The translations under genes and the position numbers were made by a program. From a virus (taxonomy: Duplodnaviria > Heunggongvirae > Uroviricota > Caudoviricetes): DNA of 40,514 nucleotides. Numbering within the stretch: position 1 is the first letter of the stretch; the number at the start of each line of letters is the position of its first letter. Shown one piece after another: positions 7,636 through 40,263 of this stretch. Location: positions 1-40,514 of IMG/VR virus record IMGVR_UViG_2529292831_000017; one strand, given 5' to 3'. Under the pieces are notes generated by a model. The model made no database searches. It was not told where the DNA came from and saw only the letters and a program-made list of their open reading frames with translations.

Positions 7636-7644
7636 GTTGTCCCC

Positions 7645-8817: not shown

Positions 8818-8892
8818 AAGGCAGTCTCTCCGGTAGTAGAGGGGGTCTGCCTATGTTCTTGTTGATACGAGCAGGATGCACGTTATGTGGTT

Positions 8893-8910
8893 TGTATGAA
8901 AAATGGCACA
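8893..8910. promoter_or_regulatory. TGT-N12-ACA dyad upstream of FI (candidate Ogr site of late promoter PF)
   Basis: TGTATGAAAAATGGCACA, 76-93 bp upstream of the FI start codon; P2 late promoters carry a TGT-N12-ACA Ogr site centred near -55. Confidence 0.55.
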
Positions 8911-8949
8911 ACGGCGGATACAGGAATCCCCGCAGACGCGGGGATGTAT

Positions 8950-9384
8950 TCAGACTTCTGGTGATAAAGGCCAGACTATATCCGGGGCATCACTTACATT
9001 AATATTTTCAAGTAACTCAAGATAATCCAGCATCGCATTAAATCTGGCTGTCTCCATTTCGTTCAGCCTGCCAAGCTGTAATTTTGATGGCCATTGTTTT
9101 TCATTAATCAGGTTGTTAGCCTCATTAATGCGCATCTGTTTCATCATTTCTGCCTGTTCCACCTGTTCCTCATAGGTCAATGGTGGACGTTCTTCCCATG
9201 ATGGCTGGTTATCAGTGCCTGCAACCATTTTGTACCCTTCCCGATAACCAAGATAAAACTCCTGATAGACTGCATCACTTACCTCAATACAGTCATCCGG
9301 CCACGCATCGAGAGCAGCGTAATAATCAGATTTCAGTTCACTGTTATAAAATGCATTTCTTGATGGACTGTAAAAATAACTCAT
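8950..9384 (-). CDS. G: Tail fibre assembly chaperone (P2 gpG / Tfa-like)
   Basis: Downstream of the tail fibre gene; the ATG at 9382-9384 overlaps the H stop (ATGA). Confidence 0.75.
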   Translation of the reverse strand: MSYFYSPSRNAFYNSELKSDYYAALDAWPDDCIEVSDAVYQEFYLGYREGYKMVAGTDNQPSWEERPPLTYEEQVEQAEMMKQMRINEANNLINEKQWPSKLQLGRLNEMETARFNAMLDYLELLENINVSDAPDIVWPLSPEV

Positions 9385-12963: not shown

Positions 12964-13538
12964 ACCGGGCCTCCGGTTGTATCGCCGCCTTTCAGGACGC
13001 CAGTATGCTGATGCGCATCAACCACAATCCCGTTAGAACTCATCGCTCCGCCGCCCTGGATAACGCCACCATTGATCACCACTTCGCTGTTAATACGCGT
13101 GCGGTCAGCCTCCAGTACAAACTCACTGGTTTTCATGGTGATGTTGTCAGCGGCCTCAATGACCATTGATTTGATGCCCCTGACATACCAGCGCCCGGTG
13201 GCGGGTTCATATTCAAACCAGCCGCCGTCAGGATGCTCTGTCACGCAGGCATCCGCCGACGTCGACGGTGGCGCGAACTGATTCGAATAGATGGCGGGCA
13301 ACGCAAAGGCGGTTTCCAGATTTCCGCCCAGACTCAGCAGCACCACCTGCTCACCTTCCGATGGTCGCCACCATGTGCGGGCATTCCCGGCACGCAGCGT
13401 CAGCCAGCTGATCCAGTTGGTTTCAAGCTCGCCCGTTTTCACCCGGCAAAGCCAGTTTTCCCTGTCCCCTTCGGTGACTACCCCAGTGCGGATCAGGTTG
13501 GTGATAAGGCGCATGATTTCGGTTAATTGTGCGTTCAT
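12960..13538 (-). CDS. V: Baseplate spike/hub protein V
   Basis: 192 aa, first gene of the V-W-J-I-H-G operon. Confidence 0.8.
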   Translation of the reverse strand: MNAQLTEIMRLITNLIRTGVVTEGDRENWLCRVKTGELETNWISWLTLRAGNARTWWRPSEGEQVVLLSLGGNLETAFALPAIYSNQFAPPSTSADACVTEHPDGGWFEYEPATGRWYVRGIKSMVIEAADNITMKTSEFVLEADRTRINSEVVINGGVIQGGGAMSSNGIVVDAHQHTGVLKGGDTTGGPV

Positions 13539-13584
13539 TTCTAAAGTGTCTCACATTAGAATGTCCTACCATTGCGAAGAAATT

Positions 13585-13602
13585 TGTATGAATGAAGATA
13601 CA
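13585..13602. promoter_or_regulatory. TGT-N12-ACA dyad upstream of V (candidate Ogr site of PV)
   Basis: TGTATGAATGAAGATACA, resembling the FI-upstream dyad; sits in the short spacer between V and the divergent cargo gene. Confidence 0.45.
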
Positions 13603-13615
13603 AAATGGAGATTGA

Positions 13616-14467
13616 ATGTTTACTGTTGGTATTTACGGCTTTACTCTAACAAAGATAACTCACTTTTCATTCGGGACAATGTATCCAATAGAAACCAGTT
13701 TTCTTAAATTAAAAAAATATAGACAAGACAAGGAAAAATTATATCTTACTGCGCTCCTTGAACTTGACATCATAGACAAGAGCGAAACAGATAATATCAT
13801 ATTTCATCTAGAGAAAATTTTGAGTTTTATAGAACAGAGAGCAGTATTTATCAGACACCAACTAAATAATAAGACTCATAAATTTGACTTGCCCATAGAT
13901 TACCCTCTCTTTATAACTCCTAATATTAACTTATCAAGTTCAGGAGAAATCATTCTTGAAGATTGCTTTTCCAAAAACTCAAGACGCTACTTTATTGAAC
14001 TTGCTATAAATAAGATCATCATTGCTAGAGATCGACCATTTACCACAATACTTCATAAAAATGTATTGGTTTTCTCTAATCCAATAAATTATCTTGATGT
14101 ATCATATTACTTACTTTTTTCTGGCCTTGAGTCATTAGTTCGAGAACGTGAGAATGATTTTAAATCAAACATTACGCCAATAATGTATCGTTACCTCAAA
14201 AAGCATGGGTTTAATATAAATCAACAAAACAATAAACATCATGACATCTCACTTGATATTTACTGTAGCTTAAGGAACGCATTATTTCACAATGGTCAAT
14301 TCCAAACCATGCCGATGAAAAGAGGCTCTAAAACAATCAGTTTTGCACTAAAGGATTTTTACTCACAATTTAAACGATTAAACTGCCTAGTCATATTAAA
14401 AGAAGCAGAATTCAGCGATCATCATATCAACTGGAATTTTAGTGATTATAGAAACCCTTTTATATAA
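13616..14467 (+). CDS. AT-rich accessory gene between S and V: hypothetical 283-aa protein with an Rx4H (HEPN-like) motif
   Basis: Opposite strand to the late operons, GC far below backbone, SD GGAG 5 nt upstream; motif SLRNALFHNG near the C-terminus. The same S-V junction holds the low-GC orf30 in P2. Confidence 0.5.
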   Translation: MFTVGIYGFTLTKITHFSFGTMYPIETSFLKLKKYRQDKEKLYLTALLELDIIDKSETDNIIFHLEKILSFIEQRAVFIRHQLNNKTHKFDLPIDYPLFITPNINLSSSGEIILEDCFSKNSRRYFIELAINKIIIARDRPFTTILHKNVLVFSNPINYLDVSYYLLFSGLESLVRERENDFKSNITPIMYRYLKKHGFNINQQNNKHHDISLDIYCSLRNALFHNGQFQTMPMKRGSKTISFALKDFYSQFKRLNCLVILKEAEFSDHHINWNFSDYRNPFI

Positions 14468-14468
14468 C

Positions 14469-14915
14469 TCACCCTGACAACCAATGAAGTAAAATATCAT
14501 GAGTGATGGCCTCTAACTCATCGTTGCTCCCCAACAACTGCCGCTCTGCGTACCGTACCTCCGGTCCTTTGCGGCTGACGCGATCACGTAAGCCGTAGTG
14601 ATGAACACGGGCAATGCGCTGTACCTTGCCTTCAAACTGCACGCTGGCAGAGTCGGCGCTGGCGGCAGTTTTCAGGTATTTTGTGGTGCGCAGCTTTGTA
14701 AACATCTGACGTTTGATGCGCCCCTTTTTGCTGCGTGCTGTTACCCTGCGCGGCTCATAACTGCTGCCATCTGGATTGCGCTGCATCCTGATGTTCTGCT
14801 GCTGTGTCCGGCGCAGTTCCTGCGCCAGCTGGCGCATCATGCGGCTTCTTGCGGCTGGCTCCAGATTCGCCAATAATGCACTCAGCCAGTTGTCCACCTT
14901 CTGCAGTTCAGCCAC
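14469..14915 (-). CDS. S: Tail completion protein S
   Basis: 148 aa, P2 gpS-like; overlaps R. Confidence 0.8.
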   Translation of the reverse strand: MAELQKVDNWLSALLANLEPAARSRMMRQLAQELRRTQQQNIRMQRNPDGSSYEPRRVTARSKKGRIKRQMFTKLRTTKYLKTAASADSASVQFEGKVQRIARVHHYGLRDRVSRKGPEVRYAERQLLGSNDELEAITHDILLHWLSG

Positions 14916-20418: not shown

Positions 20419-22185
20419 ATGAACACCACACTGACACCCGCAGATCTCGATCCCCGTCGGCAGGCCATGCTGCTGTACTTTCAGGGATACCGCGTAGCCC
20501 GCATTGCTGAAATGCTGGGCGAGAAAGTTGCAACCGTTCACAGCTGGAAAAAACGCGACAAGTGGGGTGACTATGGGCCGCTGGATCAGATGCAGCTCAC
20601 CACCGCCGCACGCTACTGCCAGCTCATTATGAAGGAGCACAAAGAAGGGAAAGATTTCAAAGAGATTGACCTGCTGGCGCGCCAGTCGGAGCGCCACGCG
20701 CGGATCGGCAAGTTTAACAATGGCGGCAACGAAGCCGACTTAAACCCTAACGTCGCCAACCGCAACAAAGGCCCGCGTCGTCAGCCGGAAAAGAACGTTT
20801 TCACCGATGAACAGATTGAGAAGCTGGAAGAAATCTTCCATTCCTCCATGTTCAACTACCAGCGCCACTGGTGGGAAGCCGGAAAAACCAACCGCATCCG
20901 CAACCTGCTGAAGTCACGCCAGATCGGCGCGACCTTTTACTTTGCCCGTGAAGCCCTGATTGACGCCCTGCTTACCGGACGTAACCAGATTTTCCTTTCC
21001 GCCAGTAAGGCACAGGCCCACGTCTTTAAACAGTACATCATCGACTTCGCCAAAGAAGTGGAGGTGGAGCTGAAAGGCGATCCGATGGTGCTTCCCAACG
21101 GGGCCACGCTTTACTTCCTCGGCACCAATGCCCGCACGGCCCAGAGTTACCACGGCAACCTGTATCTGGATGAATATTTCTGGATACCGAAATTCCAGGA
21201 GCTGCGCAAGGTGGCTTCCGGTATGGCTATTCACAAAAAATGGCGACAAACCTATTTTTCCACGCCATCCAGCCTGACACACAGTGCTTATCCGTTCTGG
21301 TCCGGTGCGCTGTTTAACCGTGGGCGCAACAAAACCGATAAGGTGGACATCGACCTGTCCCACAGCAATCTGGCCCCCGGCCTGCTGTGCGCAGACGGGC
21401 AATACCGCCAGATAGTCACCGTGGAAGATGCGGTGCGCGGCGGCTGTAACCTGTTCGACCTCGACCAGCTACGCATGGAGTACAGCCCGGACGAATACCA
21501 GAACCTGCTGATGTGCGAGTTTGTGGACGATCTCGCGTCCGTGTTTCCGCTCAGCGAGCTGCAGGCGTGCATGGTGGACAGTTGGGAAGTCTGGACCGAC
21601 TTTCATGCACTGGCGCTGCGCCCGTTTGGCTGGCGCGAAGTGTGGATCGGTTATGACCCGGCAAAAGGTACGCAAAACGGCGACAGCGCCGGATGCGTAG
21701 TGGTGGCACCGCCAGCCGTGCCGGGTGGTAAGTTCCGCATTCTTGAGCGTCACCAGTGGCGCGGGATGGACTTCCGCGCCCAGGCTGACGCCATCAAAAA
21801 ACTTACCGAACAGTACAACGTGACTTATATCGGAATCGACTCAACCGGCGTTGGTCACGGGGTTTACGAGAACGTGAAAGCGTTCTTTCCTGCCGTCCGG
21901 GAGTTTGTCTACAACCCCAACGTTAAAAACGCCCTGGTACTCAAGGCCTACGACATTATCAGCCACCGCCGTCTGGAGTTTGACGCCGGGCACACCGACA
22001 TTGCGCAGTCATTCATGGCAATCCGTCGCGCAACCACCGCCAGTGGCAACCGCCCAACCTATGAAGCCAGCCGCAGCGAAGAAGCCAGCCACGCCGATCT
22101 GGCCTGGGCAACAATGCACGCACTGTTTAACGAACCACTGCAGGGCGAGTCCGCCAATACCAGTAATATTGTGGAGATTTTTTGA
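20419..22185 (+). CDS. P: Terminase large (ATPase) subunit P
   Basis: 588 aa, P2 gpP-like length; divergent from O. Confidence 0.9.
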   Translation: MNTTLTPADLDPRRQAMLLYFQGYRVARIAEMLGEKVATVHSWKKRDKWGDYGPLDQMQLTTAARYCQLIMKEHKEGKDFKEIDLLARQSERHARIGKFNNGGNEADLNPNVANRNKGPRRQPEKNVFTDEQIEKLEEIFHSSMFNYQRHWWEAGKTNRIRNLLKSRQIGATFYFAREALIDALLTGRNQIFLSASKAQAHVFKQYIIDFAKEVEVELKGDPMVLPNGATLYFLGTNARTAQSYHGNLYLDEYFWIPKFQELRKVASGMAIHKKWRQTYFSTPSSLTHSAYPFWSGALFNRGRNKTDKVDIDLSHSNLAPGLLCADGQYRQIVTVEDAVRGGCNLFDLDQLRMEYSPDEYQNLLMCEFVDDLASVFPLSELQACMVDSWEVWTDFHALALRPFGWREVWIGYDPAKGTQNGDSAGCVVVAPPAVPGGKFRILERHQWRGMDFRAQADAIKKLTEQYNVTYIGIDSTGVGHGVYENVKAFFPAVREFVYNPNVKNALVLKAYDIISHRRLEFDAGHTDIAQSFMAIRRATTASGNRPTYEASRSEEASHADLAWATMHALFNEPLQGESANTSNIVEIF

Positions 22186-23213
22186 TGGGAAAGAGTAAGA
22201 AGAACCGCGCTGCGTCGACGAACCAGATCCAGCATAAAAGTCAAACTACAGCCGAAGCATTCAGCTTCGGTGATCCCGTTCCTGTTCTGGACCGCCGCGA
22301 ACTACTGGACTATGTGGAATGCGTACAAACAGATCGCTGGTATGAGCCGCCAGTAAGCTTTGACGGACTGGCGCGCACCTTCCGCGCCGCCGTGCATCAC
22401 AGTTCACCAATTGCGGTGAAATGCAACATTCTGACCAGTACCTACATCCCCCACCCGCTGCTCAGCCAGCAGGCTTTTTCACGTTTTGTGCAGGACTATC
22501 TGGTATTTGGTAACGCTTACCTGGAGAAACGCACGAACCGGTTCGGTGAAGTTATCGCCCTTGAGCCTGCTCTGGCAAAATACACCCGACGTGGGTTAGA
22601 CCTGGATACCTACTGGTTTGTGCAATACGGTATGACAACCCAGCCGTATCAGTTCACGAAAGGCAGCATTTTTCATCTGATGGAACCGGACATCAACCAG
22701 GAGATCTACGGCCTGCCCGGCTATCTTTCTGCCATTCCATCCGCCCTGCTCAACGAGTCCGCCACGCTGTTCCGCCGTAAGTATTACATCAACGGCAGCC
22801 ATGCAGGCTTCATCATGTACATGACCGACGCCGCGCAGAATCAGGAGGATGTGAACAACCTCCGCAACGCGATGAAAAGTGCCAAAGGTCCAGGCAACTT
22901 CCGCAACCTGTTTATGTACTCGCCTAACGGCAAAAAAGACGGGCTTCAGATCATCCCATTGTCAGAAGTCGCGGCGAAGGATGAATTTCTTAACATCAAG
23001 AACGTAAGTCGGGATGACATGATGGCGGCGCATCGTGTGCCGCCGCAGATGATGGGGATAATGCCAAACAATGTTGGGGGGTTTGGGGATATAGAAAAAG
23101 CCAGTTGCGTTTTTGTGCGAAATGAGTTAACTCCTTTACAAAAAAGACTTGTAGAAATTAATATTTGGCTAAAGAAAAAAATAATAGCCTTCAAAGATTA
23201 TTCATTGAATTAG
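22182..23213 (+). CDS. Q: Portal protein Q
   Basis: 343 aa, 4-bp overlap with P; P2 gpQ-like. Confidence 0.9.
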   Translation: MMGKSKKNRAASTNQIQHKSQTTAEAFSFGDPVPVLDRRELLDYVECVQTDRWYEPPVSFDGLARTFRAAVHHSSPIAVKCNILTSTYIPHPLLSQQAFSRFVQDYLVFGNAYLEKRTNRFGEVIALEPALAKYTRRGLDLDTYWFVQYGMTTQPYQFTKGSIFHLMEPDINQEIYGLPGYLSAIPSALLNESATLFRRKYYINGSHAGFIMYMTDAAQNQEDVNNLRNAMKSAKGPGNFRNLFMYSPNGKKDGLQIIPLSEVAAKDEFLNIKNVSRDDMMAAHRVPPQMMGIMPNNVGGFGDIEKASCVFVRNELTPLQKRLVEINIWLKKKIIAFKDYSLN

Positions 23214-23224
23214 ATAAAATGTGT

Positions 23225-23242
23225 GGGGGATGAAAATCCCCC
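23225..23242. terminator. Hairpin between convergent Q and the KAP-like gene
   Basis: GGGGGAT-GAAA-ATCCCCC stem-loop in the 37-bp gap between the two stop codons. Confidence 0.4.
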
Positions 23243-23250: not shown

Positions 23251-24933
23251 TTACAAATACCGTCTAACACGTATTTTATTAATGCTCGACTCATTTCCAA
23301 TTCTTATCAAAGCATTTCTCGCTTTTTCTCCGATGCGTTTCATTCTTTCTGAACCATTGCTATACCCACCAAACTTAAGAGCAGTAGCTATTATTGAATC
23401 ACCACCATCAAGAATGACTTTTTTAAATAAATCATAGTAGTCATCCTCTGAGGCAGCATCCAATATTTCCTCGTGCCTATCAGACCAACCATTCTGACTT
23501 GATAATTTTATTAGAACATCCTTTATAGAACCATCCAGATTTAAAGTAGTAGAATAATCTTGGATTTTTGACTTTAACTCAGCATCTTTTATAGGATGAA
23601 CATTCATGTAAATAGATTGAACATATTCCTTAAGAGCATCATTACCGTAATTAATAAATTTACTTATTAATTCACTTGCTTTAATATTTTCACCTAAATC
23701 TCTATACAGTCCGACAACACTATCCAAGTCACTTGGAGTTACATACTCTATCCCACCAACCACCGCTTGATATAGATTATCAATAACCTGATTTCGGTTA
23801 TCTTCAAATGAATTATAGAAAAGCTTCCATGCTTCAAACAGTGAACCTCGCTTACTATCACGGATAAGTTCATCATTCCTTAGACTTACTTGCCTTTGGA
23901 AATTGTTCATATCAATATATCCATGCCTTACCATGTCTATAAGGACTTCATCAAGTTCGTTTGTTTTTTTATAATCATATATAAGCAAAGTATTAAGCCA
24001 TTTTTTTTCTTTTCCATCCTCTTTTTCATCACGCATATAGATATTTCTCATATTTCTAATATACTCCAATGATGGTACATCTCCATCTGGAGTAAATGCG
24101 TAATGACTCCAACAATACAAAGTTAAGGAGTGTGCGACTTCATTTGCAATTTTTTCAAAATTAACGTTAATGCCAGGTAACAAGGCTAGCAAAAACCGCT
24201 CTATTTTTTTCAGTATCCTAATATTCTTAATACCCAGGGAAATGGAGTATTTGCTTAATAATTTATGAACATCAGAATTATTTTTATATGCTATAACTGC
24301 ACATTCTTCTGGAGTAGGATTATAGGTAATCTCTCTATCAATAACCTTTTCTTTATAAGTGGAGTAGTCATCCATACCACTTGTCCCGTTATTAAGTAAA
24401 AGAACCACCTTACAATTTTTTTGTTCTTTCAATAAAGAAACCAACCCTAAGACATCTTTCACTTCTAAATTTTTACCACGTCTTTCTAAGTCATCTATGA
24501 CTACAATAACATTAGTAATTGACATAAATGACATTGACTCAAGTGTCGTAGTGAAATTTTTCAAAAAAGGTGTATCTTTTAACACACGAGCGGTCTTTCT
24601 AGTGCAGGATTCAAGAAGCCCCTTTGCATTTTGTGTTGCTGTTTTTAAATTAGGTTTGTTTCCAATGAAATCTTTCGTAATTGTATTTTCAAAGATGGAG
24701 TATTTTAATGCGTCCAATGAATTAACACCAAAAAGAGAGACGTAACTATATCTATTAAATGCAATCTTATTTTTATTTTCCTTTAAGAAAGCATTCCAAG
24801 TATAGGTTTTCCCAATCCCCCACTCACCCTGAATAGCCATTACCTCAGGTTCTGCAGATGAAATAAAGTCTGACAACTGTTCTTTAATATAGTCTAATGA
24901 CATGTACATTCTCCGAGATAGATAGTCATCCAT
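23251..24933 (-). CDS. Accessory gene: KAP-family-like P-loop NTPase (560 aa)
   Basis: Walker A GEWGIGKT and Walker B VIVVIDDLERR (the GxWGxGK / hhhhDDLDR pattern of KAP NTPases); very AT-rich; lies between cos and Q. Confidence 0.6.
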   Translation of the reverse strand: MDDYLSRRMYMSLDYIKEQLSDFISSAEPEVMAIQGEWGIGKTYTWNAFLKENKNKIAFNRYSYVSLFGVNSLDALKYSIFENTITKDFIGNKPNLKTATQNAKGLLESCTRKTARVLKDTPFLKNFTTTLESMSFMSITNVIVVIDDLERRGKNLEVKDVLGLVSLLKEQKNCKVVLLLNNGTSGMDDYSTYKEKVIDREITYNPTPEECAVIAYKNNSDVHKLLSKYSISLGIKNIRILKKIERFLLALLPGINVNFEKIANEVAHSLTLYCWSHYAFTPDGDVPSLEYIRNMRNIYMRDEKEDGKEKKWLNTLLIYDYKKTNELDEVLIDMVRHGYIDMNNFQRQVSLRNDELIRDSKRGSLFEAWKLFYNSFEDNRNQVIDNLYQAVVGGIEYVTPSDLDSVVGLYRDLGENIKASELISKFINYGNDALKEYVQSIYMNVHPIKDAELKSKIQDYSTTLNLDGSIKDVLIKLSSQNGWSDRHEEILDAASEDDYYDLFKKVILDGGDSIIATALKFGGYSNGSERMKRIGEKARNALIRIGNESSINKIRVRRYL

Positions 24934-24970
24934 ATTATAACCCGAGTACTATCAAAGTAATAAGCGCGCG

Positions 24971-24989
24971 CTCGTATCCCCGCCACGCC
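24971..24989. other. Prophage cos site (186-type cohesive-end sequence)
   Basis: Reverse complement reads GGCGTGGCGGGGATACGAG, homologous to the 19-nt P2/186 cohesive end, and the flanking GCCCGCTTT...GCGGTTT also matches the second cos at 40245-40263. Confidence 0.6.
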
Positions 24990-25032
24990 TGCCCGCTTTA
25001 TGTAGCGGTTTTCATGCGCCTGCATGACATAA

Positions 25033-25057
25033 GCAAAATCCCGCCACTCCTGGCGGG
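25033..25057 (-). terminator. Rho-independent terminator downstream of the 203-aa membrane protein gene
   Basis: CCCGCCA / TGGCGGG stem with a T-run on the - strand (ATTTTGC). Confidence 0.5.
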
Positions 25058-25149
25058 CCTCAGCTAAAACGATCCTCAAACGATCATGCGGATTCATGCG
25101 GCATAGACATGCACAATCTCCAAAGCGGGCATCGAGACTTTTTGGAAAC

Positions 25150-25761
25150 CTACGTAACCACAGTTAATGTGTGCATCCTGTCTCGAATTGCATCACACGT
25201 CTCATCAAAAAGCTTGGTGATGGTTGTATGGTTCAACTCCGCCTCTTTCCAATAATTTTGCCCGTCAAATTCTGGATCGCTATGCTTAAACGATATTGAC
25301 TCTGAAAGGCATTCCTTCCGGAAACGGTCCAAGATTATATAAACCTCTGGTGAGATGAACGGTTTGTTAGATTCAACACTTGTAACAAAAGTGTTAAATG
25401 CATCAAAAAAAACTTTCAACCTTCTAAATTTTCTCTCTTCAAATGGTTCGTTGGGGTCAACATGATCCAGCGCAGGCCTCAGCTTAAGCACGCTTTCTCT
25501 GGTTTCAAACATCGAATTCCAAATGAGACTATATGCTGATAACTCCTTATCAAAATACGCTTTCGTTACATAAACAGAATTGTCTAACTTAGCCTTTATT
25601 CTTTCATTAGTTGCACTCAGTTGTGATTGAAATTCAGCAATATCTTTGTTTAGCCGCGACTTATATCTTTCTAAATAAACTTTCCCGATCCAAACAAATA
25701 TGCCAGATGCAACAAAAGACACCCCACCCAACGAAGCCAGAACTTTAAAGACCAAATCCAT
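25150..25761 (-). CDS. Accessory gene: 203-aa protein with one N-terminal TM helix and a coiled-coil-rich body
   Basis: Hydrophobic N-terminus LVFKVLASLGGVSFVASGIFVWIG; GC below backbone; between the SOS operon and cos, where P2 carries tin/old. Confidence 0.5.
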   Translation of the reverse strand: MDLVFKVLASLGGVSFVASGIFVWIGKVYLERYKSRLNKDIAEFQSQLSATNERIKAKLDNSVYVTKAYFDKELSAYSLIWNSMFETRESVLKLRPALDHVDPNEPFEERKFRRLKVFFDAFNTFVTSVESNKPFISPEVYIILDRFRKECLSESISFKHSDPEFDGQNYWKEAELNHTTITKLFDETCDAIRDRMHTLTVVT

Positions 25762-26729: not shown

Positions 26730-29144
26730 TTAATACAGGTTCCGCCACTTATCATCTTCCTGCAAACGCTGGTTCCGATAGAAGACACGCAGGCCTGCTC
26801 CTGACGGAATACTGCCGCCGCGAAGGAGTAAATCGACCTCTTTCTCGCTGCCATCAAATCCTCTGGACTTCAGTTCATAGACGAGCTGCTGTCGTTGATG
26901 GTCTGTAATTCGCTGTTTGTAGTCTCTACGCCGTTTCGGTTTCACCAGGCGTAACCTTGCAGCCAGTTCCCGGCGCTCTTTTTTGTTCATACTGTGCAGG
27001 TAATCGTGCAACTCCTTGTCATCCATGTGGGTAATGTCCGTTCTGGTATCCCCATCAGCTGATTTGTCTTTCCCTTGTTGGTTCAAATTTTCAGCAAGGG
27101 GACAGTTATTGCCACGAGTCCAAGGGGCGCAAGCGCCCTGGTCGGCTGCCGCCTCCTGAACGTCAACGGCCTTACGAACCATTTTCCACTTCACCGCATG
27201 AGTGCAGATCTTGCCCTCTGCAATGGGTGACCAGATGCCATAAATACGAATACCGTGATCGCCATAGGCGGTCGGTTCTTCGTTGATTTCATAAGCAGTT
27301 CTGATGAGGTGATATTTGCGGGGAACCAGTACGCCGCCCTGCTTCATGATGTAGGTGGCAAAACAACCAGCATCAGCAGCAGCCAGGATTGCATCAAGGC
27401 GCGGGTTATCCAGTACCGGCGCACCTGCTTTTTTGTCCCCCTGTTGCCTTGCCGCCTGACCAGCCAGCAATCGCAGTTCACGGTAAGCCTGACGCCCCGG
27501 AATGCCAAAGAAGCGGAATTGCTGAACACGATGCAGAGACGCCCAGGCATTAACGTATTCAGCGTTATCACGCAGGGATTTACCCGTTTCCTTGCTGATC
27601 TCGCCAGCCAGACCACGCCCGTCAATGTTCTTACTGATGTATTTCGCGATGTAGCTTGTTGGCGTACCTTTGCGCGGGTTTATCAGCTCAGACTTAAAGC
27701 GTGGTCCCGTGTTATTACCCAGCTCCTCGCGGTCTTCACGAATGGCAAACTTACGCAACAAAGCAGTAATGGTGCGGCGATCTTTTTTGCGCATAAAACA
27801 CAACAGATGCCAGTGAACTGTACCGTCATGATGCGGCTCAGCCACCCGCACGCCATACCAGCGCAATCCGGCTTTGTGCATCGCCTTACGAAATGCAGCA
27901 AACATGCCGACCAGATAATCACTGCTTTGTCTTACCGTCGCATTTGTCCAGGTCGGGTTGGGCCTGCCGTTATTTAGCGTGGAATGGAAACGTGACGGAC
28001 AGGTGATGGTGTAGAAAACGGCGCAGTCACCGCGCATTTCCGCGATAAGCTCCAGACCTTTAACACAGGCCATCATCTCATTGCGGCGATGCGCAGGGTT
28101 GCTGCTGCTGGCGTTTACCACATCCTCCATGTCCAGCGTGTCGCCGTCTTCGTTCACCAGTTCATGAGAACGGAAAAACTCCAGTGACTTGCGGCGCTGC
28201 TCACGTTTATGCATCACGGCTTCATAGCTGACATAGGGAGATGCTTTTTTGCTGACCAGGCAAACAGCACGCAACTGATCTTCCCGCCATTCGCAACGCA
28301 TCTTCCACAATTTCCGATACCACCAGTCGGCGCACAGCATACGCGCCAGCGACCCCGGAATGAGTTCATAGGGCACGGGTTTACGGCGGTTTCTTTTCCG
28401 GCGGAGTTGCTCAAACGCAGGCGGTATGACATCCAGTCGCAGGGTTTCTGCTGCCACCTTTTCCCATGTCTTGCGGATTTCTTCTGGCTTAACATCATCG
28501 GTGGCATACAAATCGCCACAAGCAGCATCAAGGCACATGCTCATATGCGCAGCTACCAAGGTGGACAGGCGTTTCACCTGATCCTGACTCATTTCAGGCA
28601 GAATCAGCAGGCCATCCAGCCCTTCATGGCTTGCCATAAAGCGAAAAGAAGTGGATAGCTGACTGTCGCGTACATGCTCCAGCCGTTCCAGACATGGCTT
28701 AATCGTCTCACACAAATAGCGGGAATAAGCCTTTGGCCTGCCCAGGCTGCTGAAGTATTCAATACGTTGCATCAGCGGCTTGCTGATATGGGAAGGCTGG
28801 GCGTTAACGTCCGCCAGAATGACCATGTCTGGATTAAAACGCTGCTGCTCATGCGCCAGCTTTGCCCAGCTAATGAGCTTATCCTGCTCCATTTCGCGTT
28901 GGACAGGATCACGGGATTCATTAAAGAAATAACGCTCCCAGACCTGAGCACTCAGTGCCTCGCGGCGCAGCTGTTCCTGCTCGTTATCGGCAGCGTACAG
29001 AGTGATCAGGTTTGAAAGCGCAGAAACCGGCGCGACTTCCGCCGGGTCCAGATAAGGGTTAATGGCCTTTTTCGGGCTGTTCCATGAGAATGCTGCGGCG
29101 GCCTCGTTAAAGCCGCTGCAGTTGTTCATATCAGCATGGCTCAT
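26730..29144 (-). CDS. A: Replication initiation endonuclease A (rolling-circle initiator)
   Basis: 804 aa; contains the tyrosine motif [12 protein letters not shown] typical of P2 gpA-family initiators. Confidence 0.9.
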
Positions 29145-33122: not shown

Positions 33123-34142
33123 ATGACCATCAGGAAACAGCCGAACGGAAAATGGTTGTGTGAGTGCTACCCTAACGGGCGGGACGGCAAGCGCGTGCGC
33201 AAGCAATTTGCGACGAAAGGCGAAGCCGTAGCATTCGAAAACTTCACCATGGATGAAGTAAACAAAAAACCATGGCTGGGGGAAAAGGAAGATCGGCGGC
33301 ATCTGTCAGAAGTGATAGAGCAATGGCACTCACTATACGGGCAGACGCTCGCAGACCCCAAACGCCTGATGGCGAAACTTAGAATTATCTGTAATGGCCT
33401 GGGCGACCCTATCGCCTCAGAGCTGACCGCCGGAGATTTTACGAAATACCGTGAAGCGCGATTAAAAGGTGAAGTGCGAAATGAAGATGGCGCGCTTATG
33501 TCGCCAGTTAAGCCCCGAACGGTAAACCTCGAACAACGCAACCTATCATCAGTTTTTGGGACTCTGAAAAAACTGGGCCACTGGTCAGCCCCTAACCCGC
33601 TCGCCGGTCTGCCAACATTCAAAATCGCAGAGGGTGAACTGGCATTCCTGACCCCAGAAGAAATTAAACGCCTGCTGGATGCCTGCGCGGATTCTCAAAG
33701 CCCCAGCCTGCTGATGATTGCAAAAATATGCCTAGCTACTGGTGCGCGGTGGAGTGAAGCAGAAAACCTGCAGGGCCATCAGTTATCAAAATACCGCATC
33801 ACTTATACCAAGACGAAGGGCAAGAAAAACCGTACCGTGCCGATATCTCAGGATCTGTATGACGAACTCCCCAAGAACAGAGGGAAGTTATTCACCCCAT
33901 GCAGAAAAGCTTTTGAGCGTGCAGTTAAACGAGCTGGTATCGACTTGCCAGAGGGACAATGTACCCACGTCTTGCGCCATACATTCGCCAGTTACTTTAT
34001 GATGAATGGAGGGAATATTCTTGTACTAAGAGATATTTTAGGCCATTCAGATATAAAAATGACTATGGTCTATTCTCATTTTTCACCTGAGCATCTTGAA
34101 GATGCTGTAACAAAAAACCCTTTATCATCACTAGCGATTTAA
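33123..34142 (+). CDS. int: Tyrosine integrase (P2/186 Int-like)
   Basis: C-terminal catalytic region HVLRHTFASYFMMNGGNILVLRDILGHSDIKMTMVYSH with the R...HxxR...Y signature. Confidence 0.9.
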   Translation: MTIRKQPNGKWLCECYPNGRDGKRVRKQFATKGEAVAFENFTMDEVNKKPWLGEKEDRRHLSEVIEQWHSLYGQTLADPKRLMAKLRIICNGLGDPIASELTAGDFTKYREARLKGEVRNEDGALMSPVKPRTVNLEQRNLSSVFGTLKKLGHWSAPNPLAGLPTFKIAEGELAFLTPEEIKRLLDACADSQSPSLLMIAKICLATGARWSEAENLQGHQLSKYRITYTKTKGKKNRTVPISQDLYDELPKNRGKLFTPCRKAFERAVKRAGIDLPEGQCTHVLRHTFASYFMMNGGNILVLRDILGHSDIKMTMVYSHFSPEHLEDAVTKNPLSSLAI

Positions 34143-34146: not shown

Positions 34147-35358
34147 ATGAAAATTAATAAAATTAGTACCACAGATTATGTAGCAATGCTTAATGAAATA
34201 TTATTCGAAATAGAGTCCAAACCACTATTAAAAGCTCCTTATCTCGCGGGAAATAATATCATTAAAGATTTTAACAATAGGGTTAAATGTTACCTAGAAG
34301 TCATAAACAAGATTTACAGTAAAAACCCTCACAACCTTGTAATTCGTGAAATAAAATCAAAAATAAAAAGCACAAAAACACTCTCGGATAAAATTTCAGA
34401 AACACTTAGATTATATTTAAACGGTAAAATCAAAGAATCTTACCTAACATTTGATCACGCTATCACCAAGACAAATATAAATGACCACATCTATAATATG
34501 TCCGTTCCATTAAGTGTGTTTTGTCATCCTGGAAAACCTCTATTTCGCGTAAGAAAAAGCGATCAAATAATAAAAGAAAGGCGTGATATCTTTCATATTC
34601 CTTTTTCTAAACGTTATCTTGTGAATGCACAAAGATACTCAGTCTCAGGCCTTCCTTGTTTATATTTAGGAACCTCTATTTTTGTATGTTGGCAAGAAAT
34701 GGAAAAACCAGACTTTGATAAATTATATGTATCTTCATTCATCACAGAGTCTGGTTCATCACATAGAATACTTAACCTTGGTTATAATTTGAGATCAGCA
34801 TTGAACATAAACACCTTAGCATGGCTGTTAGATAATGATACTGAAGGAACTATGAATAGGGTCATTTCGAACTTAATTTCCTGGCCACTTGTGTTAGCCT
34901 GTAATTATACAAAACAACATAAAAACTCTAGTTTCAACCCTGAGTACATAATCCCCAACCTTCTTATGCAATGGCTCAGCAGCAATGAAAATAAGGGCAT
35001 AGCCGGTATCGCTTATCGCACGACTAAAATTCTCAATCAAAAAGATAGTGATATTGGTATTAATATAATCATGCCACCTAAAATGGATAATATTTTGGAT
35101 TCTGGTTATGATTACTGCCCACACTTACTAAGTGTATTTAAATTTACCAAACCTGTTTCATGGCAAGTATTTAGCACTTTAAACGTCAAGACCGATGGTA
35201 TGGATGAAGATAGACTCATAATGGGAGGACCAACTCCAGCATCAGGTACAATTGAAGATTTTGATGAATCGCTAGTGGAATATTACAATAATACCTCATT
35301 CAAAAAAGTTCAATTGTTAATTCATAAAATGATGAAGCATGATTATCTTGAGCCTTAA
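34147..35358 (+). CDS. Accessory gene: 403-aa protein with RES-domain-like motifs
   Basis: About 30% GC; starts 4 bp after the int stop; LFRVRK...QRYSVSGLPCLYLGTSIFVCWQEM and later GIAGIAYRTTKI...GINIIMPP follow the RES pattern (conserved Arg, Glu, Ser/Thr). Confidence 0.5.
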   Translation: MKINKISTTDYVAMLNEILFEIESKPLLKAPYLAGNNIIKDFNNRVKCYLEVINKIYSKNPHNLVIREIKSKIKSTKTLSDKISETLRLYLNGKIKESYLTFDHAITKTNINDHIYNMSVPLSVFCHPGKPLFRVRKSDQIIKERRDIFHIPFSKRYLVNAQRYSVSGLPCLYLGTSIFVCWQEMEKPDFDKLYVSSFITESGSSHRILNLGYNLRSALNINTLAWLLDNDTEGTMNRVISNLISWPLVLACNYTKQHKNSSFNPEYIIPNLLMQWLSSNENKGIAGIAYRTTKILNQKDSDIGINIIMPPKMDNILDSGYDYCPHLLSVFKFTKPVSWQVFSTLNVKTDGMDEDRLIMGGPTPASGTIEDFDESLVEYYNNTSFKKVQLLIHKMMKHDYLEP

Positions 35359-35387
35359 GTGGCGGCGTTTTGGCGGTAGAGTATTAA
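35359..35387. repeat. 29-bp imperfect direct repeat, copy 1 (copy 2 at 36317-36345)
   Basis: GTGGCGGCGTTTTGGCGGTAGAGTATTAA versus CTGGCGGCACTTTGGCGGCAGAGCATTAA (24/29 identical); each ends in the stop codon region of a cargo gene. Confidence 0.6.
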
Positions 35388-35391
35388 GAGG

Positions 35392-36345
35392 ATGCAGTTA
35401 CAAAAAACCTCTAACTCCATTATAGAAATAGGAAGTGATCTGATGAATAACATCATCTATACAAACGAACAATATGAAATCGAAAATCTAAGTATAGCCC
35501 TGTATGCAATTTTCGATAAAATAAAAGAAAGGATTTCCATCGCCGAAGAATCTAACATTTACACTATCAGAGATGTTGGTCATAACTCGGAATCTCAAGT
35601 TTGCAAAAACACTTTTAATAAATTAACGCAATTTTTTGATTCAAACATTCTTTACATCCAAGACTGTGAAGTCTTAATTTCATATATAACAGAGTGCAGT
35701 TTGGAACTCTCTGTTATAGCGCAACAATTTTATGAAATACTCTGGAGCGATTTGTTAATAACCACACCAGACAAAGATTTTAAAGGGATTTTAGTAGCAA
35801 AATCGCCAAAAACAAGCTTGCTATTTTCTTTGTTAAGCATGCTATTTATAAAAATGAATAGTTTGTTTGACTACGTTACTAAAATCTCCTTTGAATTATT
35901 AAAGAGTAACTTCCCAATCTCTAAATACAAGAAATTAATATCCAAAAATAAATTATACGGCAACTATAAAGAATTAGTTTTTTCGACAACAACGGATACC
36001 ATATTTGAAAATAGCAATTTTATAAACACTGTAACATCATTACGAAATCATATAATTCACCACGGTTATATAGATGAGCACCCAAAGGTATATGTTGAAG
36101 TGGAAAATGGCATTGCATTTGGGAGATTTGTACTATTCCCCGATTTGAATGAGAGTGGAGGACTGGAAAATTGCATTAACAGAACTTTATTCTATTCAAA
36201 AGAAACAAAGATTGATGAAAAATTACCTGACTTAATTAAGGAATGCCAAATTAAAGTAATTAACTCGTTGAAGGTACTAATTAAAGATCATGAAGCATTA
36301 GAAGATTCAAGAAAGACTGGCGGCACTTTGGCGGCAGAGCATTAA
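35392..36345 (+). CDS. Accessory gene: 317-aa protein with an Rx4H (HEPN-like) motif
   Basis: About 30% GC; motif SLRNHIIHHG parallels SLRNALFHNG in the 13616 ORF; the ATG at 35443 has the better SD (AGGAAG, 7-nt spacer). Confidence 0.5.
   Translation: MQLQKTSNSIIEIGSDLMNNIIYTNEQYEIENLSIALYAIFDKIKERISIAEESNIYTIRDVGHNSESQVCKNTFNKLTQFFDSNILYIQDCEVLISYITECSLELSVIAQQFYEILWSDLLITTPDKDFKGILVAKSPKTSLLFSLLSMLFIKMNSLFDYVTKISFELLKSNFPISKYKKLISKNKLYGNYKELVFSTTTDTIFENSNFINTVTSLRNHIIHHGYIDEHPKVYVEVENGIAFGRFVLFPDLNESGGLENCINRTLFYSKETKIDEKLPDLIKECQIKVINSLKVLIKDHEALEDSRKTGGTLAAEH
36317..36345. repeat. 29-bp imperfect direct repeat, copy 2
   Basis: See copy 1; a related sequence AGTGGCGGCAAAATGGCGACAGAC also occurs near attL (1107-1130). 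Confidence 0.6.
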
Positions 36346-36659: not shown

Positions 36660-37856
36660 GTGGCACGGACAACACGCCCCCTGACCAACACCGAAGTTCT
36701 GCGCGCTAAAGCGATGGAGAAGGATCTAACGCTGCATGATGGCGATGGCCTTTTCCTAATAGTGAAAACCAGCGGGAAAAAGCTCTGGCGCTTCCGTTAT
36801 CAACGTCCAGTGACAAAACAGCGGACAATGATGGGACTAGGTGCTTTCCCCGCTCTTTCACTTGCTGACGCCCGAGGGTTAAGAGCAGATTACCTTGCCT
36901 TGTTAGCCAACGGAATTGACCCACAAATTCAGGCCGAAGTTGCAAAGGAACAGCAGCAAATCGCTCTGGACAGTATTTTTTCAACGGTTGCCGCTAACTG
37001 GTTCCAGCTCAAAAGTAAAAGCGTTACCCCTGATTACGCAAAAGACATTTGGCGTTCACTGGAGAAAGATGTATTCCCTGTCATTGGTGAGATCCCCGTT
37101 CAGCAAATCAAAGCACGAACTTTGGTTGAAGCCCTTGAGCCAATCAAAGCTCGTGGGGCGCTTGAGACTGTACGTCGACTTGTGCAGCGCATCAACGAGA
37201 TAATGATTTATGCCGTAAACACTGGTCTGATTGATGCCAATCCAGCATCAGGTATTGGAATGGCCTTTGAGAAGCCCAAAAAACAAAACATGCCGACGCT
37301 GCGGCCAGAAGAATTGCCGAAGCTGATGCGTTCTTTGGTTATGTCTAATCTGTCTGTTCCGACGCGTTGTCTTATTGAGTGGCAACTTCTCACGCTTGTG
37401 CGCCCTTCTGAAGCATCCGGCACTCGATGGGCAGAAATCGATCTCGATGCCAAGCTCTGGACGATCCCAGCCGAACGGATGAAGGCCAAGCGTGAACATA
37501 TTGTTCCTCTATCTCCTCAGGCATTAGAGATTCTGGAAGTAATGAGGCCAATCAGTGCTCACCGTGAGCATGTTTTTCCAAGCAGAAATGATCCAAAGCA
37601 AGCGATGAATAGTCAGACTGCAAATGCCGCGTTAAAACGAATTGGATATGGAGGTAAATTAGTAGCTCATGGTTTGCGCTCAATAGCGAGTACTGCTATG
37701 AATGAAGCTGGTTTTAATTCAGATGTGATTGAAGCAGCACTCGCTCATAGTGATAAAAATGAAGTGCGAAAAGCTTATAATCGCGCGACATATATCAATG
37801 CTAGAAAAGAAATTATGAATTGGTGGGGAAATTGCATCAATAAAAGTAAGATCTAA
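36660..37856 (+). CDS. P4-type tyrosine integrase (CP4-57 IntA-like)
   Basis: 398 aa, GTG start with SD AAGGAG; N-terminal arm-binding-type domain plus catalytic region (HGLRSIAST...LAHSD...VRKAYNRATY); P4-family integrases typically target ssrA and tRNA genes. Confidence 0.9.
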   Translation: MARTTRPLTNTEVLRAKAMEKDLTLHDGDGLFLIVKTSGKKLWRFRYQRPVTKQRTMMGLGAFPALSLADARGLRADYLALLANGIDPQIQAEVAKEQQQIALDSIFSTVAANWFQLKSKSVTPDYAKDIWRSLEKDVFPVIGEIPVQQIKARTLVEALEPIKARGALETVRRLVQRINEIMIYAVNTGLIDANPASGIGMAFEKPKKQNMPTLRPEELPKLMRSLVMSNLSVPTRCLIEWQLLTLVRPSEASGTRWAEIDLDAKLWTIPAERMKAKREHIVPLSPQALEILEVMRPISAHREHVFPSRNDPKQAMNSQTANAALKRIGYGGKLVAHGLRSIASTAMNEAGFNSDVIEAALAHSDKNEVRKAYNRATYINARKEIMNWWGNCINKSKI

Positions 37857-37878: not shown

Positions 37879-38787
37879 TTAGATCATGGTTGCTATGCGT
37901 TCTTTTAAATAACCAAATTGCGTGTAGCCTTCATTCTTTTTAATTAAACTTGCTATTTGAGACTCGTTATAGCTACCTTCAAATCCATAAAGACAGAGCT
38001 CATCATTCCCACTGTAACAAAACTGACATTTATCTACCTCATCATGCAGACATTTTGTTTTCAACCCTTTAATTTCACCAATTAACATTCGGCAGAATTC
38101 GCCAATTAACCACTTACCTTTACATATATTAAGTAAACCTGCTAAGTCTTTGCTTACCCCCATCTGAATAGCAAATTCATCAAGTTCTTTTTCTCGCTCA
38201 ACAATTTTTTCAAAAGCGCCTATATTTTTCAAGTGTTGAACGCTCATCTTATATGATGCTAGAGATTCATAATCTTTCACGCAAGCTTTTTTCAAGCACT
38301 CTAAAGACATATAATACAACGACATTAGAGCCTCTGCTAAATTTTCATAGAGCATCTCAATTAACTCACTGGTTAGCAATTTTGGCTGTATTCTTGTACA
38401 TTGTTCAATAACACATTTTATTGCCTGCCGTGTGATAAAATGGCTTTCCATCGAGTACCATCTCAGCACAAAAACGGCTGAATTATTAACAACTTCACCT
38501 CGGTAGTAGCGAGCATCTCGATCTATAATGCCTAAAATGTAGTGCCCTAAATCCCCCTCATACTCAAGTTCAAGTAATGCCTCAATAAAGTCAATTACAC
38601 CTCTATTACCTTCACTCATATCCTTGAAATTCTGAACAGCAACCACCTCGAAATATTTATCAAGCTGTTGACAAATGCCTTCATAAATTGAAATGTCATC
38701 GACGCCTTCAACGACTAACATTGGCGTTTCAGACATAATTGCCTCATTCAATATTTCATCATACTCCATACTCAGCCAATCGTTCAT
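37879..38787 (-). CDS. ariB: TOPRIM/DUF4435-like nuclease, PARIS AriB-like (302 aa)
   Basis: N-terminal LVVEGVDD glutamate motif and ILGIIDRDARYY DxD motif; AT-rich; 4-bp overlap with the upstream ATPase gene. Confidence 0.55.
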   Translation of the reverse strand: MNDWLSMEYDEILNEAIMSETPMLVVEGVDDISIYEGICQQLDKYFEVVAVQNFKDMSEGNRGVIDFIEALLELEYEGDLGHYILGIIDRDARYYRGEVVNNSAVFVLRWYSMESHFITRQAIKCVIEQCTRIQPKLLTSELIEMLYENLAEALMSLYYMSLECLKKACVKDYESLASYKMSVQHLKNIGAFEKIVEREKELDEFAIQMGVSKDLAGLLNICKGKWLIGEFCRMLIGEIKGLKTKCLHDEVDKCQFCYSGNDELCLYGFEGSYNESQIASLIKKNEGYTQFGYLKERIATMI

Positions 38788-40079
38788 TTCGAATTATTCT
38801 CAATTTTAACCGGTGCAAGTTTAACCAGACTGTTGGGTGACTTCTTAGATATGATAGGGCTATGAGAGGCCACGATTATTTGTGTTTCTGGCACTAATTC
38901 CTGTAGAAGACTCAGCAATGTACGTTGCCATTTGATATTAAGAGAAATTTCTGGCTCATCAATAAGTAGAATATCTCTTCCACGACCTGCAATTATAACT
39001 ATTGATAGAAAGGTAAGAATATGCCTTTCACCACTTGATAATGCTCCGATGGATAAATGAGAGTCTTCAGTTTCAACATATATCTCATGCTTATTAATAA
39101 TTAACTTTTTATCTCCAACCAAGAAGGAGTTAAAGACATCAACCAAGATGTTAATGGAACTTAAAAGTTGTTTCTCAACCTTTAATTCACGAGTCATATT
39201 CATGACTAACTTTCTCAACAGTTGGTTTTCAAGTATTTTATTAACATCAGATTCACTTTGTATTGATGATAAAATATTAACAACATGATTTTTAAAATTA
39301 TTCTCAAAACCATCATCCAACGCTTCAATAATCCTCTCTTTATTTTTATATACATCACTCTCAAAATTCGAAGGCATCACGATATCTTCAGAAGTTTTCT
39401 TTGCATCCACTGCTATGGCCAACGTATCAAACAACGCATTTTGAATTCTTTCAGTAGCTATATTCCTTGCTAATAGATAACGTTCAACAAGCATATTCTC
39501 GATATTACTCATTTTTATATTTTGAAGAAAAACATGTTTTGCATCTAAATCCATATCATCTTTTTTATTTCTCCTCCTGTTGTTTTGATATCTCTTTAGA
39601 AACATTGCCATCCTTTCACTAAACAAATGAATATCTGTCTTCGCAAATAAAGAGCGATATTCTGGATGACCAAGAAATCTCAAAATATCCACTGGTTCAA
39701 CTTTCAATGACTCTGATGTTACGCCCCTCTCCACACCAAGAGATAATGATGTACAATCAGCTAATTCAGAATCGACAAGATCGCTCCAGTCGTATGAGTC
39801 TTTAATAATCCCCTCTTCTCCCTCCTCTTGAATCTGTCTTACTGGTACAAACTCTCTTTCTCCATTATTTTTCTCATAATAGATTTCAACATACATTACA
39901 TTTTCGCTTGCAAGCGACTCATCATCACGTTTAAGGATAGAATGTATTAATTTCAAAAATGTAGTTTTACCGCAACCATTATCACCATAAATAACAGATA
40001 TGTCACCATCAGCAAATTCAACATAAGCTGCTCTGTTAATTGATTGGAAGCCTGCAATGTATATAGATAATAGCTTCAT
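38784..40079 (-). CDS. ariA: ABC-type ATPase, PARIS AriA-like (431 aa)
   Basis: Walker A GDNGCGKTT, ABC signature LSSGERHIL, Walker B ILLIDEPE, H-loop ASHSP; AT-rich. Confidence 0.6.
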   Translation of the reverse strand: MKLLSIYIAGFQSINRAAYVEFADGDISVIYGDNGCGKTTFLKLIHSILKRDDESLASENVMYVEIYYEKNNGEREFVPVRQIQEEGEEGIIKDSYDWSDLVDSELADCTSLSLGVERGVTSESLKVEPVDILRFLGHPEYRSLFAKTDIHLFSERMAMFLKRYQNNRRRNKKDDMDLDAKHVFLQNIKMSNIENMLVERYLLARNIATERIQNALFDTLAIAVDAKKTSEDIVMPSNFESDVYKNKERIIEALDDGFENNFKNHVVNILSSIQSESDVNKILENQLLRKLVMNMTRELKVEKQLLSSINILVDVFNSFLVGDKKLIINKHEIYVETEDSHLSIGALSSGERHILTFLSIVIIAGRGRDILLIDEPEISLNIKWQRTLLSLLQELVPETQIIVASHSPIISKKSPNSLVKLAPVKIENNSK

Positions 40080-40244: not shown

Positions 40245-40263
40245 GTGCTTTCCCCGCCTCGCC
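40245..40263. other. P2/P4-type cos site
   Basis: Reverse complement is GGCGAGGCGGGGAAAGCAC, matching (from recollection) the 19-nt P2/P4 cohesive end, in a GC-rich non-coding stretch. Confidence 0.6.

Follow-up and report, generated by a model that had tools for sequence, protein, structure and literature searches.

The 40,514-nucleotide stretch of viral DNA analysed here (IMG/VR record IMGVR_UViG_2529292831_000017, positions 1 to 40,514; referred to below as the window) includes a P2-like prophage that carries a gene for a KAP-type P-loop NTPase between its cohesive-end site, cos, and the portal gene Q. The gene (23251..24903, minus strand) encodes a protein of 550 amino acids (aa), WP_001726290.1, and its assignment draws on the RefSeq start, matches to Pfam, PDC-S49 and phrog_4740, and homologues. 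It is a self-contained accessory cassette, or 'moron', in the cos-proximal defence hotspot of the prophage. The evidence as a whole makes it fairly probable that the NTPase is a single-gene anti-phage defence of the soluble KAP sensor-NTPase kind. The protein is a soluble, PifA-like KAP defence candidate, of which the site, the locus and the PADLOC family had already been catalogued.

In the list of open reading frames (ORFs) of the window the gene appears as a 560-aa ORF at 23251..24933 (minus strand), which carries AIQGEWGIGKTYTW with the Walker A motif and NVIVVIDDLERRGKN with the Walker B motif. The window is 99.9% identical to DNA of Escherichia coli strain 504237 (NZ_CP025862.1), where the RefSeq entry for the gene, WP_001726290.1, describes a 'P-loop NTPase fold protein' of 550 aa that starts at Met11 of the ORF. 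A GGAG at 24911-24914 lies 7 nucleotides (nt) 5' of the Met11 ATG, and all homologues as well as the PHROG profile start at 'MSL...', i.e. at Met11. A perfect TATAAT (24934-24939, minus strand) directly adjoins the first ATG of the longer frame, so that this ATG would precede any transcript initiated from it. The Met11 start was accepted because of the GGAG spacing, the TATAAT position and the starts of the homologues and the PHROG profile. Thus, the 560-aa ORF reported in a first-pass annotation of the window is present, but the protein made from it probably has 550 residues. The TATAAT, tentatively considered a promoter element of the NTPase gene, is a candidate −10 hexamer that is kept in a 77%-identical allele (prophage L005) and is accompanied by only a weak −35 sequence. 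An origin of the frame by chance is unlikely because 1.65 kb remains open at 33% GC and there are hundreds of full-length homologues, with a dN/dS of 0.13. One copy of the gene, a 99.8% allele in E. coli JL05 (NZ_CP049936.1, hit H35), aligned over 1,682 instead of 1,683 nt; its annotation is split into a 'P-loop NTPase fold protein' and a 'hypothetical protein', which suggests that it is frameshifted.

The first-pass annotation had also proposed a KAP-like P-loop NTPase with GEWGIGKT and VIVVIDDLERR motifs, and this was borne out by a search with hidden Markov models. The Pfam KAP_NTPase profile (PF07693) matched with 34.9 bits against a gathering cutoff of 20 (E = 1.3e-8) over residues 18-210 of the 560-aa ORF and profile positions 6-231 of 293, and both motifs are present in the ORF. 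The profile also matches 36 of 40 diverse relatives at E < 0.01. On these scores the NTPase is a peripheral member of the KAP family. Scores for AAA_22, AAA_16 and NB-ARC stayed below the Pfam thresholds (NB-ARC 14.9 bits, cutoff 23.5), with weak NB-ARC matches in 14 of the 40 relatives. The profile match and the tripartite effector-NTPase-sensor arrangement that characterize STAND proteins were not found, as the NTPase begins around residue 16 and is not preceded by an N-terminal effector. In PADLOC, the profile of the defence candidate PDC-S49 gave 87.5 bits (E = 2.2e-25) while covering only positions 9-443 of 624, which points to a subfamily related to PDC-S49 and not to a core member of it. 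PDC-S49 profiles matched all 40 relatives tested, with a best E of 3e-29. The protein belongs to phrog_4740 (E = 7.7e-145), annotated as 'function unknown'; an NCBIfam search gave no match and a sequence search of the PDB found no relative.

The N-terminal NTPase module comprises residues of about 16-205 (24289..24858, minus strand) according to Pfam (residues 8-200), AlphaFold2 and Foldseek. Walker A (GEWGIGKT, residues 26-33; 24805..24828, minus strand) has G26, W28, G29, G31, K32 and T33 invariant in 40 homologues. The same is true of I136, D137, D138, E140 and R141 in the Walker B strand (VIVVIDDLER, residues 132-141; 24481..24510, minus strand), which carries the KAP-type 'DDLxR' signature. 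Both motifs are intact and competent-looking, judged from the residues present. Also invariant are the LLLN strand at 169-171 and N227, I228 and R229, and the C-terminal half has many such positions, for example W359, K408, W473, F493, K494, E538 and R545. An AlphaFold model with a mean predicted local distance difference test score (pLDDT) of 84 shows an alpha/beta P-loop core followed by helices only. Foldseek searches of the PDB with this model gave weak matches (E about 1e-4, TM score about 0.3) to ORC/Cdc6, RFC, RuvB, FtsH and Apaf-1, and searches of the viral structures in BFVD returned nothing specific, only generic AAA+/ORC matches. The core of the modelled protein is therefore a generic AAA+/STAND-like fold.

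No transmembrane (TM) segments were detected; the highest Kyte-Doolittle value in a 19-residue window is 1.28, and none exceeds 1.6. Two or four TM helices occur in eukaryotic and some bacterial KAP proteins and are not universal. PifA also has none and still excludes T7 (PMC13001434), so that the absence of TM helices does not bar KAP membership. The earlier description of the protein as a soluble variant is in agreement with this, whereas its contrast with 'many KAP NTPases' does not hold well for bacterial KAP proteins, among which TM-less forms such as PifA are not unusual. Between Walker A and Walker B lies a polar helical-hairpin insert (residues 86-127; 24523..24648, minus strand; pLDDT 40-64), which we infer to be the counterpart of the TM insert in membrane KAPs. 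With a conservation of 0.62 and 33-62% identity between subfamilies, it is among the most variable segments of the protein.

The remainder, residues 206-550 (23254..24288, minus strand), is an all-helical module consisting of a lid and a helical-repeat-like region, and Foldseek detected no enzymatic fold in this half. When 1.84 billion representative sequences were searched with a profile of the C-terminal half, 2,136 proteins were found, 966 of them at E <= 1e-30. Almost all have a length of about 550-600 aa and match at about 205-555; from this near-uniform length and match position it follows that the module is private to this NTPase architecture and not shuffled among proteins. Conservation is 0.75-0.79 in the NTPase core and 0.52-0.66 in the C-terminal half. 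Conservation is lowest in the 86-127 insert and at residues of about 421-470, where distant subfamilies share 24-26% identity. A conserved engine next to variable surfaces fits what would be expected of a sensor NTPase.

The genomic position was established by locating the cos site of the prophage. Its backbone includes the terminase gene P (20419..22185), the portal gene Q (22185..23213, plus strand; Pfam Phage_portal), which is the conserved flank of the cassette, and the replication gene A (26730..29144; Phage_GPA, E = 1e-127); a DinI gene and a 62-aa ORF are among the prophage genes between Q and A. A search of the window for the exact P2/P4 cos 19-mer, GGCGAGGCGGGGAAAGCAC, returned only 40245-40263. 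This site was rejected as the prophage's cos since it belongs to a neighbouring P4-like satellite, and the prophage cos was instead found by alignment and with the help of the P2 cosL annotation. The cohesive-end 19-mer GGCGTGGCGGGGATACGAG, the reverse complement of 24971-24989 (cos core 24971..24989, minus strand), is a 186-like cos variant that aligns column for column with P4 cos, with the second cos of the window and with the same site in the L002 and L005 prophages. With the cos core at 24971-24989, the NTPase gene is flanked by cos on one side and by the 3' end of Q on the other. Its transcription runs away from cos and converges on that of Q, and the stop codons of Q (23211-23213) and of the NTPase gene (23251-23253) are 37 base pairs (bp) apart. 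The insertion between cos and Q and the convergent orientation are thus as the first-pass annotation described them. In P2 itself, cosL occupies positions 1-19, the terminator tQ 160-181 and the Q stop codon 187, leaving a cos-to-Q spacer of 167 bp. The 1.7-kb NTPase cassette therefore takes the place of that spacer. A promoter spanning cos was also considered and ruled out, as the candidate −10 and the weak −35 are both confined to the gene side of the 19-mer.

Comparison of the cos-Q junctions showed that related prophages diverge within about 10 nt of cos on the Q side, where the variable cassette starts. A boundary inside Q, prompted by the AT-rich 3' end of that gene, was rejected because the C-terminus of the portal protein is homologous in all prophages, P2 included. 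The convergent stop codons are separated by a GC-rich hairpin, GGGGGAT-GAAA-ATCCCCC (23225..23242, no strand assigned; −15.4 kcal/mol), at the position of tQ in P2. The hairpin terminator that had been ascribed to the gene therefore exists as a hairpin but is not a canonical intrinsic terminator: it has no canonical T-tract, was not called in a terminator scan and is not exceptional compared with shuffled sequence (z = −1.4). On the A side of cos there is a terminator-like hairpin with a T-tract (25040..25057, minus strand), conserved in L002 and L005, which would shield the NTPase gene from upstream transcription. A 67-aa ORF (24894-25097, minus strand) runs across cos and matches phrog_28685 (E = 1.8e-24); it is without RefSeq annotation and probably spurious, conserved only through the conservation of cos.

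Distribution and composition indicate that the NTPase gene is variable cargo and not part of the core genome. It was found in 128 of 5,426 complete E. coli genomes (about 2%), while 1,282 genomes contain parts of the flanking region; as a rough figure, one in ten E. coli genomes with matching P2-type flanks carries the NTPase. The very AT-rich composition noted earlier is evident from a GC content of 32.7%, and 26.5% at third codon positions (GC3), compared to 50% and 59% for Q and 53% and 57% for A. The cassette as a whole has about 33% GC, versus about 50-56% in the flanking genes. All alleles share this property (GC 33-36%, GC3 25-31%; Q 50-53%). Two deeply diverged alleles occupy the same slot, with 14 genomes at >=95% nt identity and 112 at 80-90% (about 80% among the records listed), and a 44%-identical Salmonella homologue is found at the same position beside Q. 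Between the window allele and the 80% allele the dS is 0.93 and the dN/dS 0.13, while portal Q is 96-97% identical at the aa level among prophages with diverged NTPase alleles. These values indicate strong purifying selection on an NTPase cassette much older than its present flanks, and the contrast between alleles and flanks is consistent with cassette exchange at the hotspot. In Pantoea-like contigs (L011-L014, about 6185-9228) a decayed P2 remnant lies amid chromosomal genes. It comprises part of DinI, an 85-aa ORF and a portal gene cut short at 177 aa, along with an NTPase homologue of 554 aa that is intact; this looks like an accessory gene kept after decay of the prophage.

The cargo appears to work as a single gene. 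When the three nearest ORFs on each side were clustered over 80 species-level loci, no flanking family occurred in more than three of the 80, and no conserved partner gene was found. The families that reached three were the P2 portal/terminase/scaffold set, only three of the 80 loci being in a P2 context. The commonest E. coli allele has no gene other than the NTPase between DinI and Q. The neighbour data thus suggest, by gene content, that the protein functions without a conserved partner.

Outside E. coli, near-full-length relatives (30-44% identity) have a sporadic distribution that takes in Gamma-, Beta-, Alpha- and Deltaproteobacteria as well as Cyanobacteria, Bacteroidota, Leptospira, Myxococcota, Nitrospinota and several lineages of the candidate phyla radiation (CPR). 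Full-length relatives with 26-28% identity are encoded on SSU5-like phage-plasmids of Klebsiella, E. coli and Salmonella, on rhizobial plasmids, on a conjugative plasmid of Legionella, where HicAB and RelE toxin-antitoxin genes lie on either side, and at the genome end of temperate phages of Burkholderia beside a RelE-type toxin-antitoxin pair. Taken together, relatives reside on prophages, phage-plasmids, plasmids and islands.

The gpA-gpQ interval beside cos is an established defence hotspot. Rousset et al. (2022, PMC9122126) described 1,650 gene arrangements at this site, validated several systems and confirmed old/tin, and Vassallo et al. (2022, PMC9519451) found four new defence systems there. 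The NTPase gene shares the features of hotspot members, lying between A and Q, beside cos, and varying among similar prophages. The first-pass annotation had placed it where P2 carries its exclusion genes; old and tin are on the other side of cos, but the literature treats the A-to-Q interval as one hotspot. Table S5 of Rousset et al. (PMC9122126) lists NZ_CP025862 as 'hypothetical + hypothetical + KAP_NTPase + DinI' with WP_001726290, and KAP_NTPase is entered there at least 69 times. This cargo is the identical locus, catalogued and not cloned in that study, which did not distinguish its position on the Q side of cos. A literature search found no paper on PDC-S49 or the NTPase accessions. 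PDC entries are computational candidates, and PDC-S49 has a single-gene architecture like that of the NTPase.

Among known proteins, the NTPase can be compared with PifA of plasmid F, which excludes T7. Both proteins belong to KAP (PF07693), with collinear GxWGxGKT, hhhhDDLxR and YxxKxI motifs, and in the alignment GEWGIGKT and VIVVIDDLER stand opposite GAWGSGKT and IVVMDDLDR of PifA. Both are also free of TM helices, act or would act as a single protein encoded on a mobile element, and have a long non-enzymatic C-terminal region. PifA is larger (741 aa) and a core KAP protein with 148 bits, compared to 35 bits for the NTPase described here. Only the NTPase motifs are alike (hhalign probability 34%); between the C-terminal regions there is no relationship. 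Furthermore, pifA is in an operon with the repressor gene pifC, whereas the NTPase gene has no partner, and the phenotype and triggers of PifA are known while those of the NTPase would have to be predicted.

Other KAP proteins were connected to phage resistance by experiments in 2025-2026. Walker B and the C-terminal region are both required for the resistance conferred by EF_KAP and three metagenomic KAP proteins, which in the case of EF_KAP does not act by abortive infection (PMC13552941, PLoS Biol 2026); Reve, from P4 hotspots, is likewise a KAP defence encoded by one gene (PMC13586616, NAR 2026). Like the NTPase, these are single proteins in which a KAP P-loop domain is joined to an uncharacterised C-terminal region. 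EF_KAP differs in having two TM helices and in coming from Enterococcus, whereas the present protein is TM-less and from an E. coli prophage. Reve, compared here by description alone, is described as not recognised by PADLOC, whereas the NTPase is. Tmn, of the YobI family, and the NLR-like STAND/Avs proteins share with the NTPase the logic of an NTPase switch coupled to a helical-repeat sensor. Tmn has TM helices, in contrast to the NTPase, and the N-terminal effector domain of the STAND/Avs proteins is missing here; the weak NB-ARC hits (14 of 40 relatives) and the Apaf-1 fold match recall this group, while NB-ARC and NACHT remain below threshold.

In view of the above, a possible mechanism for a defensive NTPase can be outlined. 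The protein would be made at a low level in the lysogen from its own weak promoter. Its variable helical surfaces, in the C-terminal module (especially about 421-470) and in the 86-127 insert, could recognise a phage-encoded protein, and binding of this protein would convert the NTPase to an active form that depends on NTP and is probably oligomeric. Since no effector domain is present, the output would have to come from the NTPase assembly itself or from host factors at the membrane. In one scenario, NTPase-driven assembly would sequester or remodel an essential phage component. Alternatively, the protein may act at the membrane through host factors, like PifA, leading to abortive infection. 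Confidence in any particular output step is much lower than in the defensive role as such. A broader proposal, which we hold only tentatively and consider rather doubtful, is that the protein represents a very large family of effector-less soluble KAP immune sensors, in which the private C-terminal module recognises a phage protein and neutralises it by NTP-driven self-assembly. The family comprises more than 2,000 clusters at 50% identity, with full-length members from Enterobacterales to Cyanobacteria, Bacteroidota, Leptospira and CPR bacteria. If correct, self-assembly would be distinct from the mechanisms of PifA (membrane leakage), Tmn (Mg2+ export and plasmolysis) and STAND/Avs (dedicated effector domains).

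Several observations weigh against a defensive function of the NTPase. The literature search found no phenotype for the protein or a close relative, and it is absent from the systems cloned by Vassallo et al. (PMC9519451) and by Rousset et al. (PMC9122126), the latter including no KAP protein at all. Not all hotspot cargo is defensive, as about a quarter of P2 hotspot loci hold partition systems and some hold toxins (PMC9122126). The neighbours in the 80 loci are mixed, with integrases, housekeeping genes and few defence genes, the latter including Mads components, type IV restriction and other PDC candidates; because the immediate neighbours are so heterogeneous, the association with defence islands outside P2 is only modest. 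The match to PDC-S49 is partial, as noted above, and a consensus scan 5' of the gene gave no full sigma-70 match, only the −10. Finally, the lack of a recognisable effector in the NTPase makes the output step speculative.

Four other explanations can be considered. The NTPase could have a non-defence accessory role, either in prophage or plasmid maintenance or addiction, or in regulation of host membrane or signalling complexes. The last of these was the first proposal for KAP proteins generally. The absence of a defence phenotype from the literature and the occurrence of distant relatives on plasmids and phage-plasmids, some beside toxin-antitoxin genes, would agree with such a role, as would the partition systems in P2 hotspots (PMC9122126). 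However, the 80 loci revealed no gene for a centromere-binding or antitoxin partner, and by Foldseek the fold is not of the ParA/ParM type. Moreover, a sporadic multi-phylum spread combined with variable recognition-like surfaces is typical of immunity genes, and the protein matches the defence-candidate profile PDC-S49. We therefore regard a non-defence role as unlikely. A factor for competition between elements, directed at P4-like satellites or rival P2-like phages via cos, terminase or portal, appears quite improbable. It would explain why the cassette abuts cos; the window also holds a P4-like satellite with its own cos and PARIS, and one P2-hotspot system restricts P2 relatives (PMC9122126). 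On the other hand, Rousset et al. (PMC9122126) ascribe the cos adjacency of hotspot cargo to a shared recombination hotspot, not to a functional link. Only three of 80 loci are P2-linked and the protein is conserved at full length in hosts without P2 or P4, and Pfam and Foldseek gave no similarity to terminase- or cos-binding proteins.

The neighbouring gene on the A side of cos (25150..25761, minus strand; phrog_26391, WP_016237789) suggests a third option, a two-gene system. It encodes a 203-aa protein with one N-terminal TM helix and a coiled coil, which could serve as membrane effector to an NTPase sensor. The two AT-rich genes are adjacent and share one strand, and defence systems often have membrane effectors. 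Yet cos and the terminator-like hairpin part the two genes, and their distributions hardly overlap: of the E. coli genomes, 128 have the NTPase gene and 52 the 203-aa gene, with both in only one complete genome. In Table S5 of Rousset et al. each occurs with other neighbours, and the commonest E. coli allele has the NTPase as sole cargo. A two-gene system is largely refuted by these data and very improbable; the 203-aa gene constitutes an independent cargo of the hotspot, located on the A side of cos. Its RefSeq name, 'valyl-tRNA synthetase', is considered a misannotation because the only Pfam trace is a sub-threshold hit (16.7 bits) to the coiled-coil arm Val_tRNA-synt_C. Least probable of all is that the NTPase serves packaging, structure or replication as part of the phage core, a role that its distribution refutes. 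In favour of such a role one could cite the proximity of cos, portal and terminase as well as a weak match to a clamp loader among the PHROGs (E = 6e-4). Against this, the gene is absent from P2, where cos to Q measures 167 bp, and from about 90% of related E. coli prophages. Its GC content is foreign and far below that of the backbone, it is found on non-phage plasmids and islands, and no match to a packaging or structural family was found. The two findings that the first-pass annotation had named as contradicting its proposal, such a match or a place in the core genome with backbone-like GC, were thus not obtained.

A single-gene anti-phage defence of the soluble KAP kind remains the favoured interpretation. 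As it stands, the locus confirms published hotspot biology and does not extend it. If the protein is active, a widespread single-gene family would join the short list of KAP-type defences, and the lack of an effector domain or membrane anchor would make it a clean model for how an NTPase plus a helical sensor can act on a phage. The two diverged alleles in one cos-Q slot, with a dS of about 0.9 and near-identical flanks, offer a natural experiment on specificity swapping.

Other parts of the window also contain accessory genes. A second low-GC island (13501-14500, 31% GC) lies in the late genes and contains a 283-aa ORF (13616..14467, plus strand) without a PADLOC match; judged by its position, we think that it is the second P2 hotspot, the Z/fun locus of Vassallo et al. 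(PMC9519451). Next to the P2-type integrase gene (33123..34142), and between it and a P4-type integrase gene, are two AT-rich ORFs of 403 aa (34147..35358, plus strand) and 317 aa (35392..36345, plus strand). This region (34147-36345) has 30-35% GC and is unannotated, and searches of Pfam and PADLOC gave no match for either ORF. Both may represent additional cargo, accessory or defensive, at this end of the prophage. A 160-aa ORF (1184-1666, plus strand) in a stretch of 44% GC has a weak PADLOC hit to PDC-S48 (E = 1.8e-7) that covers the C-terminal 70 residues only. Finally, the segment 36660-40263 is the end of the P4-like satellite adjoining the P2-like prophage and corresponds to the P4 cos-proximal defence hotspot. 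It encodes the P4-type integrase (36660..37856, plus strand) and the PARIS proteins AriB (DUF4435; 37879..38787, minus strand) and AriA (AAA_15/AAA_21; 38784..40079, minus strand), and it ends with the exact P2/P4 cos core of the satellite at 40245-40263.

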